Shown here piece by piece: positions 3,611 to 11,431 of a stretch of DNA of 31,000 nucleotides. The notes beneath the pieces are model-generated. The model was not told the origin of the DNA, did not search any database, and saw only the letters and a program-made list of their open reading frames with translations. The translations under genes and the position numbers were made by a program. The number at the start of each line of letters is the position of its first letter. The first letter of the stretch is position 1. Source of the stretch: a virus (taxonomy: Duplodnaviria > Caudoviricetes); IMG/VR virus record IMGVR_UViG_3300044477_000109, positions 1 to 31,000 of that record; one strand, 5' to 3'.

Positions 3611-4197
3611 TTTACGCGCTTGAACTCGACCACCCATACCCAGGGGTTGGCGTCCCATCCGTAGCCGAGCTTGGCGTTGATCGAGTCCCAGAGGTCCTCG
3701 AAGAAGGACCGCGCGGGAATGTCGAAATAGCCATCTGTCAAATCGTCGTTGGACGCTATACAGCCCTCGGCGATAGCGTCCGCCTCGCTTATATCCTGCA
3801 CGCGCTCGACGCGGACGGAGGTTATTTCAAGCGTGATGCGTGAGAGGGCGCGAGGCATAAAAATAGAAGGGCGCCACTTATGCGAAAGGTCATATTTATC
3901 GCCGTCGACTAGTGCGGTTATTTTTTTCCCATCGGCCCGATAGTAGGTCGCATCTTTGGCGGCGAAGTCTTCAAGCGTCTGGAACGTCTCCCGCACCCAT
4001 AGCCGGTCGCCGGGCTGGCCGTAGGGGCAGGCAACTAGTCGGCCCCGCTCATCTATGGGCCAGCCGCAGTCATGACCGCCAGCACGCCCGTTAAATAATG
4101 TCGGATGAGGTTTTATCACCCGCCGCGTCATCGTCTTGCGCCCCTCGAGGATCGCGCGCACCATCGGCGCAGAAAATAGAATCGGCCTTTCTTTCAT
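3607..4197 (-). CDS. ASCH/PUA-like phage protein
   Basis: KERPILFSAPMVRAILEGRKTMTRR, CPYGQPGDRLWVRET, WRPSIFMPR and NPWVWVVEF match a widespread phage family. Confidence 0.85.
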   Translation of the reverse strand: MKERPILFSAPMVRAILEGRKTMTRRVIKPHPTLFNGRAGGHDCGWPIDERGRLVACPYGQPGDRLWVRETFQTLEDFAAKDATYYRADGKKITALVDGDKYDLSHKWRPSIFMPRALSRITLEITSVRVERVQDISEADAIAEGCIASNDDLTDGYFDIPARSFFEDLWDSINAKLGYGWDANPWVWVVEFKRVK

Positions 4198-4610
4198 CTT
4201 CCCCATCCTTTCACTTTCGCAAGATATTCGCGGTCAACGCCGTTGCGCCTAGTCCAACCTGCCCCGCGCTTGTGGGCGGTTACAGCCTTGTTGACGCTTC
4301 CGAGTGCCGCGAAGTTTTTGGAAAATAGCTTAACCGCGTGGCGCGTGGCCTCAACCGGATCGAATGGATTGACTAGCCCGCGCTCGGCGTCGTATAGGTC
4401 GCGGAACTGCCATAGCCCCCGATCGTGCCCATCGGGACTAACCGCGTCCGCCTGGAAGCTTGACTCGGCCCCCGCGATGCCCCAAAAGTAAGCCAGTGGA
4501 AGCGATGCGTTTGAATGCCCTAGCGCTACCGGATGGCTAGGCCGGTAGAGTCTCGCCCCCGATGTCAGAGCGACAAAGAGGGCAAGCGCTAGGAGCATCC
4601 CGCGCTTCAT
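4194..4610 (-). CDS. Secreted SLT-type lytic transglycosylase
   Basis: N-terminal signal or anchor; AESSFQADAVS (catalytic Glu), GLWQF, NPFDP; AHKRG in place of AYNAG. Confidence 0.82.
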   Translation of the reverse strand: MKRGMLLALALFVALTSGARLYRPSHPVALGHSNASLPLAYFWGIAGAESSFQADAVSPDGHDRGLWQFRDLYDAERGLVNPFDPVEATRHAVKLFSKNFAALGSVNKAVTAHKRGAGWTRRNGVDREYLAKVKGWGR

Positions 4611-4687
4611 CGCAATATCCACGCCCCGAGAAGGAATAGCGCCGCAATGAATAGGAGCACTAGGCCGAGAAGCGTTGACGGGTTCAT
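4607..4687 (-). CDS. 26-aa single-TM peptide
   Basis: MNPSTLLGLVLLFIAALFLLGAWILR; ATGA overlaps at both ends. Confidence 0.65.
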   Translation of the reverse strand: MNPSTLLGLVLLFIAALFLLGAWILR

Positions 4688-5646: not shown

Positions 5647-5667
5647 GCAGTAGCCTCCTTGAAAAAT

Positions 5668-5809
5668 TGGAAGCGGCGGGATTTGAACCCGTATGTCGTA
5701 CGGTCCCCCGGCATCCTGTCCTATCCGTACCGTCTAGACAGGTAGCCGCGATATCGTGCGCACTCCTCCGCTATTTGGGGCGAGGGGCACCATTCCCTCG
5801 TACGCTTCC
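5668..5809 (-). ncRNA. tRNA-like structured RNA with a large pseudoknotted insert
   Basis: 7-bp acceptor GGAAGCG/CGCTTCC+A; D-like arm CGAGGG-AATGGTGC-CCCTCG; T arm CGGG-TTCAAAT-CCCG; no canonical anticodon arm. Confidence 0.7.
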
Positions 5810-5849: not shown

Positions 5850-5878
5850 TTTACACGCGGGATATGTGGTATTAAAAT
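5850..5878 (+). promoter_or_regulatory. Lysis cassette promoter (probably leaderless transcript)
   Basis: TTTACA-17-TAAAAT, then 6 nt, then the ATG at 5885; no Shine-Dalgarno. Confidence 0.65.
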
Positions 5879-5884
5879 ACAAGC

Positions 5885-6397
5885 ATGAACGAAGCCTTTC
5901 TGCGCAAGTATGGCAACCCGGACGCGAACGGCGACGGCATTATCGATACGGCGTGGTTTAATGAGAATATCCGCGTGTTTGTTTTGCCATATCCTATGCC
6001 GATATCATGGGGAGATCACGCCGAGACAAAGCGCTTTCAAGCGCATAGGCTCGCGGGAGATCGGATTATCGCCGCCCTTGTGAAGATGCGGGAATTTGCG
6101 CAGATCGAAGCCAATGAGGAAAACGAGAAAAAAGATGCCCTCGTTTGGATGCGCGAGAATAAGTACGATGTTTGGGGCGGCTGCTTCGAGTGGCGGGCAA
6201 TGCGTAGCGGCGCCGCGCGCTCAACACACTCTTGGGGCACGTCGGTTGATATAAACCCGGATCGCGGCGGCATGAATAACACCGAGGATAAGAAATACTA
6301 TCCTGCGTGGATCGTGAGGGCCTTCGAGTCCCAGGGTTTTTATTGGGGCGGCAGATTCCCCGTAACCGATCCTATGCATATGGAATTGCAAGACTAA
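5885..6397 (+). CDS. Endolysin, M15-family Zn peptidase
   Basis: R...STHSWGTSVDINP and WGGRF...DPMHME motifs; followed by holin and spanin-like genes. Confidence 0.9.
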   Translation: MNEAFLRKYGNPDANGDGIIDTAWFNENIRVFVLPYPMPISWGDHAETKRFQAHRLAGDRIIAALVKMREFAQIEANEENEKKDALVWMRENKYDVWGGCFEWRAMRSGAARSTHSWGTSVDINPDRGGMNNTEDKKYYPAWIVRAFESQGFYWGGRFPVTDPMHMELQD

Positions 6398-6408: not shown

Positions 6409-6588
6409 ATGAAGTTTATCAAGTCGCTTTTTACTGATGGCGAATGGGACGGCGATCTTGTGAAAGTAGCCGGATTCGCCTTGATTATTGTCGGAGTAGT
6501 CGGCTGGTTCCTGGGCCGCGATCCCGCCTTTATTGTCGGTTTCGGGGCCGCGCTTGCCGCGTCTGGTAAGTTCTCGAAACAGGGCTAG
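6409..6588 (+). CDS. Putative holin (59 aa, two hydrophobic segments)
   Basis: AAGGAGG RBS; MKFIKSLF...; lies between endolysin and spanins. Confidence 0.7.
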   Translation: MKFIKSLFTDGEWDGDLVKVAGFALIIVGVVGWFLGRDPAFIVGFGAALAASGKFSKQG

Positions 6589-6590
6589 GC

Positions 6591-7007
6591 ATGGATGCGC
6601 CGCGCCGCGTTTTGCTTATCGCTGCTTCTTATGTTCTCGCCATGGCTCTCGGAGCAGGCGGCGTCATCCTCATTGCCGGGCATGGAAGCGACGCTCTCAA
6701 GCTCCGAGCTGAACAGGCTGAAAGCGATCTTCGTACAGCTCGAAGAGATCTCAATAGCGCTCGACTCGAAGCTAGCGGACTCCGAGGCCAGCTTGGCGAC
6801 GCTGTCGGACGAGCTACAAGCGCTGAAAGCCGAGCTATCGACGCTGAGGTGCGAGCTGTCCGAGCTAAAGCAGAAGCTGACGCTATCCGAGGAGCAATCG
6901 GCGAAGCTAGAGGAAGCGCTCGCGAAGTCGGAAGCCTCGCTCGCGAAGGCGCAGGCATCCTCGAAAATCTACCAGGCGGAAGCGGAGATAAAAATAAAGG
7001 CCCTTGA
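6591..7007 (+). CDS. Putative i-spanin (Rz-like)
   Basis: N-terminal TM followed by an Ala/Arg-rich coiled coil; in the lysis cassette. Confidence 0.65.
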   Translation: MDAPRRVLLIAASYVLAMALGAGGVILIAGHGSDALKLRAEQAESDLRTARRDLNSARLEASGLRGQLGDAVGRATSAESRAIDAEVRAVRAKAEADAIRGAIGEARGSAREVGSLAREGAGILENLPGGSGDKNKGP

Positions 7008-7092
7008 ATTAAGGGCCTCGGGCTGGCAGATCGCGGGGATCGCTGGCCTAGCTCTTGGCGTCGCTGGCCTTGTCTACGGGCTGACTCGCTAG
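6595..7092 (+). CDS. Putative second spanin subunit in the +1 frame
   Basis: Signal-like N-terminus, long Leu heptad coiled coil, C-terminal TM (WQIAGIAGLALGVAGLVYGL). Confidence 0.7.
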   Translation: MRRAAFCLSLLLMFSPWLSEQAASSSLPGMEATLSSSELNRLKAIFVQLEEISIALDSKLADSEASLATLSDELQALKAELSTLRCELSELKQKLTLSEEQSAKLEEALAKSEASLAKAQASSKIYQAEAEIKIKALELRASGWQIAGIAGLALGVAGLVYGLTR

Positions 7093-7464: not shown

Positions 7465-7516
7465 AGCCTCATCAGGCCGGGTATCTCCCGGCGACGGCCG
7501 AAAGGCCGTTTCGGCT
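7465..7516 (-). ncRNA. Type II hammerhead ribozyme
   Basis: AGCC-GAAAC-[GGCC TTTC GGCC]-GTC^-[GCCGGG AGATA CCCGGC]-CTGATGA-GGCT has the full catalytic core and three perfect stems. Confidence 0.93.
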
Positions 7517-7901
7517 AGCGTTTCTCGATTGTAGGCAATATCGCTGACGGCTTGAAGATGATCTTATAGCTTTTGTCCGATACGGCGTTCGGCGCGAGGG
7601 CCTCGGAAAAATACGTCACGTTGTCCGCATGGCCGAAATAGTGCTTAAGGTAGAGCCCGTCTTGCGTTTTCACTGTTACTACAAGATCGCCGTCGGAATC
7701 GACGATGATGGCGAGCATCCCCTCTATCTGCATAATGTAATTACCAGTGATCACGTTATAAAAAACGCATCGGCGATAGACTTGGAAGTTTTGCTCTGCT
7801 ACTTCGAGATTGTGCCGTGCCACGCTTGCATCGCTATCGCATCCCGTAAAAGAAACCGCGAGGCCAAGAACCACTAAAAACAAGAGAACAAACCTTTTCA
7901 T
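7515..7901 (-). CDS. Conserved phage lipoprotein (resembles the mycobacteriophage L5/D29 gp64-like family)
   Basis: Lipobox FTGC; NFQVYRRCVFYNVITG, KHYFGHADNVTYF and FKP motifs; family recalled from memory. Confidence 0.8.
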   Translation of the reverse strand: MKRFVLLFLVVLGLAVSFTGCDSDASVARHNLEVAEQNFQVYRRCVFYNVITGNYIMQIEGMLAIIVDSDGDLVVTVKTQDGLYLKHYFGHADNVTYFSEALAPNAVSDKSYKIIFKPSAILPTIEKR

Positions 7902-10660: not shown

Positions 10661-11431
10661 TTAATAGGTCGCTTCTACGTCGCCTAGATATGATGCCCAG
10701 ATATGACCAGGCGCATCTAGTCCATCGTCTATGTCCTGCGTGTTGTATTGCTCAACGGCGGGGTTTATGCCGAACTGTATACGATGCACCGCCTCGGCTT
10801 CCGTCTCAAATCGCTCGGAGTAGTAAACGATTCGGGCCGTCGTATCGAGAAGCGCTACCCATAGCTTGGGAGCCGGGGGGATATACTCGATAACAGGCGG
10901 CGCGTGGTCAACGTAGATAAGGCAAGGTATAAGATTCCCCGCATTGTCTCGAATATCATTCAGCATCGAAGCCTGTTCGGCCTGGGCATACCAGCCCGCC
11001 CGATTTGTCACAAGCTCGCCACGCGGAACATCCATATACGATTCGAGTGTTTCATGCGTGAAGGGATTAACGATATAGCCATCCACCGTTGGCGCTTCGG
11101 ATACAGGGACCTCTGCGCCAAGGTAGGGGCCAAGTATTGCGTCATCGGTATGCGCCGCATTGTAGGCCGCTTGCTCGCCTAAGGCCGCTTCGAGGTCAAC
11201 CGTAGTGCCATCCGTAAGGCTTCGCGCGGAACTTGAGGCGGAGACGCCGAGCCTGGCCTCTGTCCAGTCCGAGTAGTAGAAATGCACCGCGATAGACGGC
11301 GCGGCAGGCGTAGTCGTTGTGGGAGTCGTTGCCACCGTGGGCGTAGCTACCGGCACTTCGGGAGCCGGAGCCTGGGGTTGCGAGCATCCGAAAATCAGGG
11401 CAGTAAGCAGAATAACGACAATCTTTTTCAT
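10661..11431 (-). CDS. Lipoprotein with Pro/Thr linker (moron-like; candidate superinfection exclusion)
   Basis: GGAGG RBS; MKKIVVILLTALIFGC lipobox; own promoter; start is 11431 rather than 11647. Confidence 0.8.
   Translation of the reverse strand: MKKIVVILLTALIFGCSQPQAPAPEVPVATPTVATTPTTTTPAAPSIAVHFYYSDWTEARLGVSASSSARSLTDGTTVDLEAALGEQAAYNAAHTDDAILGPYLGAEVPVSEAPTVDGYIVNPFTHETLESYMDVPRGELVTNRAGWYAQAEQASMLNDIRDNAGNLIPCLIYVDHAPPVIEYIPPAPKLWVALLDTTARIVYYSERFETEAEAVHRIQFGINPAVEQYNTQDIDDGLDAPGHIWASYLGDVEATY

Follow-up and report, generated by a model that had tools for sequence, protein, structure and literature searches.

A co-starting, dual-frame gene pair without a canonical lipobox in a phage lysis cassette: a candidate spanin analogue

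Described spanins and the lysis cassette

In the accessible text of the two sources that we follow, every described spanin reaches the outer membrane by means of a lipid anchor (PMC6139136; 10.1101/2024.01.23.576932). The definition of the two-component class by Kongari et al. 2018, as set out there, requires an outer-membrane lipoprotein, and about 96% of the two-component spanins carry a periplasmic Cys for intermolecular disulfides; the accessible part of that survey raises the possibility of an i-spanin that is a type I inner-membrane protein, an alternative which, like outer-membrane proteins, was not considered there, and it lists 91 of 677 phages without a spanin (PMC6139136). Its histograms (Table S4) contain no case among 178 embedded o-spanins that starts in the first 0.1 L, and no case among 226 overlapped ones that shares more than 0.7 L (PMC6139136). 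The Rz/Rz1 pair of the Shewanella phage LambdaSo is presented as a conventional nested lipoprotein (10.1101/2024.01.23.576932), and the Leptospira spanins, as far as the available account goes, were predicted by lipobox (PMC8705779). A term search of the six supplements of the survey returned no named spirochaete phage (PMC6139136).

The window, by which we mean the whole stretch of 31,000 nucleotides analyzed here, is a complete phage genome with direct terminal repeats. Pfam, PHROG and NCBIfam profiles identify terminase, portal, podovirus-type capsid and recombination genes on the minus strand; the plus-strand unit is made up of the endolysin, the holin, ORF A and ORF B only, with the following features:

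5850..5878, plus strand: sigma-70-like promoter candidate, TTTACA-17-TAAAAT, 10/12 matches, ending 6 nt 5' of the endolysin ATG
5885..6397, plus strand: endolysin, M15 peptidase, 170 aa (Pfam Peptidase_M15_4, E 2e-13; PHROG endolysin, E 5e-14)
6409..6588, plus strand: holin-like protein, 59 aa, two hydrophobic segments, its function suggested by size and position
6578..6597, plus strand: putative shared initiation region, with the holin stop TAG at 6586-6588 followed by ATGGATG at 6591-6597, which holds the starts of A and B, and an AGGG purine run just 5'
6591..7007, plus strand: ORF A, 138 aa, i-spanin-like, predicted type II inner-membrane protein with an N-terminal membrane helix at about 7-28 and a long helix at 33-125
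6595..7092, plus strand: ORF B, 165 aa, +1 frame, with a signal-peptide-like N-terminus that has no lipobox, a heptad helix at 36-143 and a C-terminal hydrophobic helix at about 145-162

Six promoter-like sites occur in this region, compared with 1.9 +/- 1.5 in shuffled sequences. The candidate at 5850..5878 would drive the small plus-strand lysis cassette, and because its -10-like hexamer lies so close ahead of the endolysin ATG (5850-5887) the lysis mRNA may be leaderless. The holin-like protein is highly conserved, with 112 relatives, and matches no Pfam, PHROG or NCBIfam family. Two bases past its stop lies the ATGGATG that had drawn attention to this locus: the claim of two starts 4 nt apart and 413 nt in common was borne out at 6591-7007 and 6595-7092, with B in the +1 frame relative to A. 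As expected for a two-component spanin, the pair stands in the lysis cassette alongside endolysin and holin, in the last slot, which spanins also hold in lambda and T1; a genome-wide detector and a lipoprotein scan gave no second spanin candidate adjoining it. A lysis role of the pair is strongly supported by this context.

Two further features lie close to the cassette. On the minus strand at 5665-5760, adjoining the lysis promoter, is a tRNA-like sequence with a T-arm (GGTTCAAATCCC) and a CCA end; ARAGORN finds no tRNA in it, and Rfam gives only a 15-nt match to a tmRNA end (E 0.03). Outside the cassette, at 4194-4622 on the minus strand, a gene encodes a small SLT transglycosylase whose N-terminus carries a hydrophobic segment.

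Conservation of the pair and selection on both frames

The sequences of A and B change so quickly that direct searches returned no homolog of A among 264 candidates, four of B among 832, and none of either in viral contigs; for this reason the holin was used as the search handle. Loci were gathered by the holin, and 71 were examined, the window included; weak Rhizobium loci (L014, L015) and duplicates (L059, L060, L077-L080) were left out before counting. A detector that allows either frame and takes the closest starts within 12 nt found a co-starting pair beside the holin in 62 of the 71. B is in the +1 frame in 62/62 pairs, with start offsets of -2 (51 loci), +4 (6), -5 (3) and +7 (2), and the overlap covers 0.97-1.00 of the length of A; B is likewise paired with A in 62/62 detected cases, as is to be expected of a detector that seeks pairs. 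The loci are partly redundant, B collapsing to 35 clusters at 90% identity and 22 at 50%, and mean column identity is 22-25%. Among the nine misses, four have 3 nt or less of sequence downstream, and four end or run on inside the pair with both frames open. The one true miss (L072) is a holin without the pair and with an amidase-like gene after it; 1.4 kb of upstream sequence was examined in this case. The original prediction turned on both frames staying open in homologs, and neither was found interrupted (62/71 loci).

In three loci (L001, L007 and L017) the pair is parted from the holin by other DNA and a single GGAGG/GAGG-like purine-rich site precedes both starts; that displaced pairs keep one such site ahead of both starts suggests shared initiation. 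The genome-wide detector returned exactly one co-starting pair per genome in 7/7 holin-family genomes or part-genomes, always at the cassette; neither three Leptospira phages (LE3 gave one antisense false match) nor two stretches of Borrelia plasmid contained a true pair. The gene ahead of the holin varies among M15_4, YkuD, DUF261 and C39-like types (11/17 proteins with such a Pfam match at E < 0.001), and its exchange while the pair stays in place fits an endolysin slot, in which DUF261 would act as an enzyme. The pair could also serve in the virion or in ejection, or act in superinfection or on membrane vesicles, and merely sit beside lysis genes, and the vir526 and L010 records do carry the cassette inside a structural gene run. 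We judge such a role very improbable, because carriers of the cassette differ in their capsid and tail modules; the pair tracks the holin across unrelated virion types, and the plus-strand unit of the window is confined to the four genes listed above.

Some loci of this set show individual peculiarities. One short contig (L052) holds two different dual-frame pairs, at 314-820 and from 1072, before and after a broken holin-like gene, either by duplication or through chimeric assembly. In L007 a 312-aa gene (1216-2100) is inserted between holin and pair, and close relatives such as L038 are without it. A reverse transcriptase gene in G104 (L086, 17968-18960, minus strand) and an Mtd_N protein gene in G107 (L093, 4273-5187, minus strand) are possible parts of diversity-generating retroelements.

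That both frames are under selection was shown by several lines of evidence. When the overlap was recoded with phage codon usage, the other frame remained open in 0/2000 sequences with B kept and in 1/2000 with A kept; the third frame contains 11 stops within the overlap of the window and 3-15 stops in 26/26 pairs. Substitutions were counted in 10 pairs of relatives, one locus entering twice, and in the overlap amounted to 213/1089 at sites that are first in A and third in B codons (A1/B3), 136/1091 at A2/B1 and 196/1091 at A3/B2 (Fisher p 7e-6 and 4e-4). The lowest value at A2/B1 together with high values at A1/B3 and A3/B2 is the signature of two coding frames, unlike the single-frame pattern in the unshared tail of B and in the holin (0.083/0.039/0.300 by codon position), and all four indels in the overlap of the same relatives are multiples of 3. 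A public contig, possibly the source itself, spans the stretch with zero differences, and 6759-7085 is also represented, again with zero differences, by pieces from two further studies; assembly error is ruled out because other contigs carry identical DNA. The opposite explanation, in which a single frame codes and the second is its shadow, results from a frameshift in assembly or belongs to one frameshifted protein, can draw on the vir526 annotation, which calls A alone, and on the want of a close database relative for the A protein of the window; it is largely refuted by the substitutions, the in-frame indels, the recoding null, the closed third frame and the identical contigs, and since each frame has its own start and its own N-terminal signal in 62 loci we regard it as scarcely credible. 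The locus is also a clear example of dual coding over the full length, maintained although protein identity has fallen to about 20%.

Predicted topology and comparison with known systems

The products had been described from the reading frames as two long coiled coils, one with an N-terminal transmembrane segment and the other with a signal-like N-terminus and a C-terminal one, and this description holds. AlphaFold2 models A as helices 3-29 and 33-125 and B as one helix, 36-164 (mean pLDDT 88 and 90), long single helices with heptad patterns visible in both rods; A is hydrophobic near its N-terminus and has no such segment at its C-terminus, and B is hydrophobic at both places, its Gly/Ala-rich C-terminal helix being followed by a 3-residue tail. 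A is thereby predicted to consist of an N-terminal membrane helix and a periplasmic helical domain, as an i-spanin does. At E < 0.001 the A proteins match only Rz-like spanins in PHROG, in 3/22 cases and weakly (E 3e-4 to 6e-4), a match that is partly compositional, and B also matches tape-measure and SMC coils in profile searches. A Foldseek search of the B model against viral structures gave 0 matches at E 0.001 or below, and a profile comparison of A with B found them unrelated (probability 4%). A and B are correlated in length (rho 0.87), which the overlap partly forces; when residues 30-138 of A and 24-165 of B were modeled as a complex, the score was 0.15 against a mark of 0.32, which speaks neither for nor against their pairing.

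The absence of a lipobox in B was examined in 35 distinct proteins with rules of our own for lipobox and signal peptidase I (SPase I) sites, the relaxed version of which caught 4/6 control lipoproteins. The rule-based check found no canonical lipobox in any of the 35, and in the window Cys7, to which attention was first drawn, is the sole N-terminal Cys of B. A crude SPase I-type site is present in 28/35, with the recurring ends LWA-EE, SYA-EV and VYG-QS; in the window the site is less clear than in most relatives because Glu occupies the usual -1 position (WLSE-QAAS), where the homologs P0005-P0007 have Ala or Gly. B might nevertheless be an unusual lipoprotein with a relaxed, spirochaetal lipobox, the pair then being a helical u-spanin plus helper of the kind seen in the Leptospira phages LE1 and LE3: 19/35 B proteins have a Cys at 11-34, 4/35 fit the relaxed rule, this rule missed two of the six controls, and LE1/LE3 show a lipid together with a C-terminal helix in the same slot. 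No Cys lies at 11-34 in the remaining 16/35, which include that of the window, Cys positions in B are not conserved, a Leu, Val or Met codon in A can through the overlap alone create a Cys codon in the B frame, and the SPase I-type ends recur, all of which makes a lipid-anchored B highly unlikely in our estimation. Two lipoprotein-like genes are present elsewhere in the window, at 7515-7901 (SFTG-C, Pfam Phage_VG64) and 10661-11431 (LIFG-C) on the minus strand, both unlinked to the A/B pair in the relatives examined; given these two genes, and given that the lipoprotein scan missed the lysis lipoproteins of LE1 and LE3, a distant o-spanin may exist.

The membrane segments of the two proteins differ in kind. 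The helix of A has a median of 2 charged residues before and 3 after it, like lambda Rz, T7 gp18.5 and P2 LysB. In B, K/R residues are more numerous before the C-terminal helix than after it in 33/35 proteins and the tail has 4 residues or fewer in 28/35; on an approximate scale, the mean insertion score is +0.4 for this helix versus -1.6 for that of A, and the inner-membrane anchor of T1 gp11 scores -5.6 on the same scale, with 1 K/R before and 4 after. The marginal hydrophobicity, the basic residues ahead of the helix and their near absence behind it make the inner face of the outer membrane a more likely place for the B tail than the inner membrane. These sequence features, the sole observation of this kind, are suggestive of a tail that points away from the inner membrane; the route by which an alpha-helical tail would enter the outer membrane is still hypothetical.

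Sec substrates that end in a hydrophobic helix are normally arrested in the inner membrane. This default fate of a protein with a signal and a C-terminal helix favors a reading in which A (type II) and B (type I) both stay in the inner membrane as a periplasmic coiled-coil complex, which either regulates or helps lysis (as an antiholin-like protein, a holin activator or by endolysin positioning) or damages the outer membrane by pushing. The coil of B weakly resembles an NCBIfam SH3-and-anchor family, a type I inner-membrane i-spanin was envisaged in the accessible text of Kongari et al. (PMC6139136), and single-helix lysis helpers are on record in the available accounts of mycobacteriophage LysF1b (PMC13056207) and Lcc6 (10.1101/2024.01.23.576932). 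The tail of B has neither cytoplasmic basic residues nor the hydrophobicity of the T1 gp11 anchor, and the pair fills the spanin slot with no other spanin candidate alongside; on balance we consider that both proteins staying in the inner membrane is a minority prospect, though one to be taken seriously.

Compared with the two-component spanins (lambda Rz/Rz1, embedded; P2 LysB/LysC, overlapped; and those of Shewanella phage LambdaSo), A and B are likewise the last cassette genes, the partner again lies in the +1 frame, and the role of first component falls to a type II helical protein with an equal flanking charge pattern and, in A, the weak PHROG match. B differs in that by our rules it is not a lipoprotein, exceeds the first component in length and consists of a long helix with a hydrophobic C-terminal helix. 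In the two-component class the partner gene begins inside the i-spanin gene or downstream of it (embedded, overlapped or separated), but B starts at 0 L (-5 to +7 nt) and overlaps 0.97-1.00 of A, outside the histograms in the accessible survey tables. The periplasmic Cys conserved in that class is here scattered and unconserved, most of 26 pairs being without any, and Pfam Phage_lysis (PF03245) was found in 0/5 related genomes (the E. coli control was positive) and gave no match for A or B.

T1 gp11 shares with B an N-terminal export signal, a C-terminal hydrophobic helix and the last position in the cassette. It carries a lipobox (Cys22), its body is predicted to be rich in beta structure, and its inner-membrane anchor is strong and bears a basic tail. 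All of this is absent from B, whose C-terminal helix is weaker with its charge flanks reversed; and gp11 is a single gene, whereas B, modeled as one helix, never occurs without A in the loci examined. The original prediction that the topology corresponds neither to Rz/Rz1 nor to T1 gp11 agrees with these differences in gene layout, lipobox and anchor.

A similar arrangement in cultured phages is found in LE3 (L098, 33194-33840) and LE1 (L099, 4938-5662), which infect a saprophyte: there a type II membrane protein gene abuts that of a lipoprotein with a C-terminal hydrophobic helix, both following endolysin- and holin-like genes, and these genes, annotated as hypothetical, are spanin candidates. 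As in the pair, a type II protein comes first and its exported successor has a C-terminal helix lacking a basic tail; they differ from the pair in that the genes abut instead of being nested and in that the second protein has a Cys after the signal, is shorter and lacks a long coil. Lipoprotein-free membrane proteins needed for lysis are described in the accessible parts of the reports on the phiKT gp28 disruptin (10.1101/515445), LysF1b (PMC13056207) and LambdaSo Lcc6 (10.1101/2024.01.23.576932); these are single small proteins, with neither a dual-frame pair nor a rod bearing both a signal and a tail anchor.

The pair is confirmed as real and conserved, and a literature search, in which subscription journals are poorly covered, turned up no description of a co-starting lipid-free pair. 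It falls outside the two-component and u-spanin classes and most likely works like a spanin. We propose that A/B is probably a lipoprotein-free spanin analogue that breaks the outer membrane, A being an inner-membrane protein and B anchored by its tail. Translation of A and B would start from a single initiation region and be coupled to that of the holin; the N-terminal helix of A would anchor it in the inner membrane, its rod extending into the periplasm in the manner of an i-spanin, and B would be exported by its Sec signal, cut by signal peptidase I and retained through its C-terminal helix, perhaps in the inner face of the outer membrane. The matched-length rods may then pair, and after the wall has been removed by the endolysin their antiparallel bundle would place the N-terminal anchor of A beside the C-terminal anchor of B and draw the membranes together. 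A bolder version, which we advance tentatively and hold to be possible but doubtful, is that these proteins constitute a third spanin class, a co-initiated, full-length overlapped pair in which B has a helical tail in the outer membrane with neither lipid nor beta-barrel and the two form an antiparallel fusion hairpin. If true, this class would be a lysis solution for phages of spirochaetes, and perhaps of other diderms beyond the reach of the classical o-spanin.

Hosts and significance

The hosts are likely spirochaetes. All 57 of 57 plasmid matches of DUF261 are from Borrelia or Borreliella, and Spirochaetota is the phylum in which the top Atlas cluster for B occurs most often, as judged from the only 3 members with a phylum given; a bacterial host is also argued by the wall-peptidase gene of the window. 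Host labels on holin-bearing records conflict, reading Omnitrophota, Mesotoga, Gammaproteobacteria and, for vir526, Methanomicrobiales. The holin was found in 1/101 genomes of the phylum of one bin (that bin alone), and in the phylum of another bin one strong match among 201 genomes (that bin itself) was accompanied by three weak ones. Since the phylum samples around them gave no further strong holin match, we read these bins as misassigned phage contigs. Searches of cultured phages with the endolysin and terminase gave distant matches only, and DUF261 was the sole host marker to emerge from a Pfam scan that covered 84/118 listed ORFs of three related genomes.

Spanin annotation relies on lipobox detection. 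The pair provides a cloneable candidate for phages with no recognised spanin, and the co-start gives a search rule for what annotation misses, as in vir526, where A alone is listed. Should the B tail enter the outer membrane, it would represent a route there for helical proteins and a minimal fusion machine.

Two sets of records touch on the host question from the side. The vir526 locus (L059, BK063670.1), labelled Methanomicrobiales, has the cassette with a DUF261-like gene, and its annotation omits ORF B; its host label may be wrong. On the Borrelia plasmids lp28-2 (L061, 2839-4291) and RT1S lp51 (L062, 2809-4398) a DUF261 gene is followed by genes for a 116-124 aa protein and a BBA14-family lipoprotein, and DUF261 may be an unrecognised endolysin of Borrelia prophage-like plasmids.
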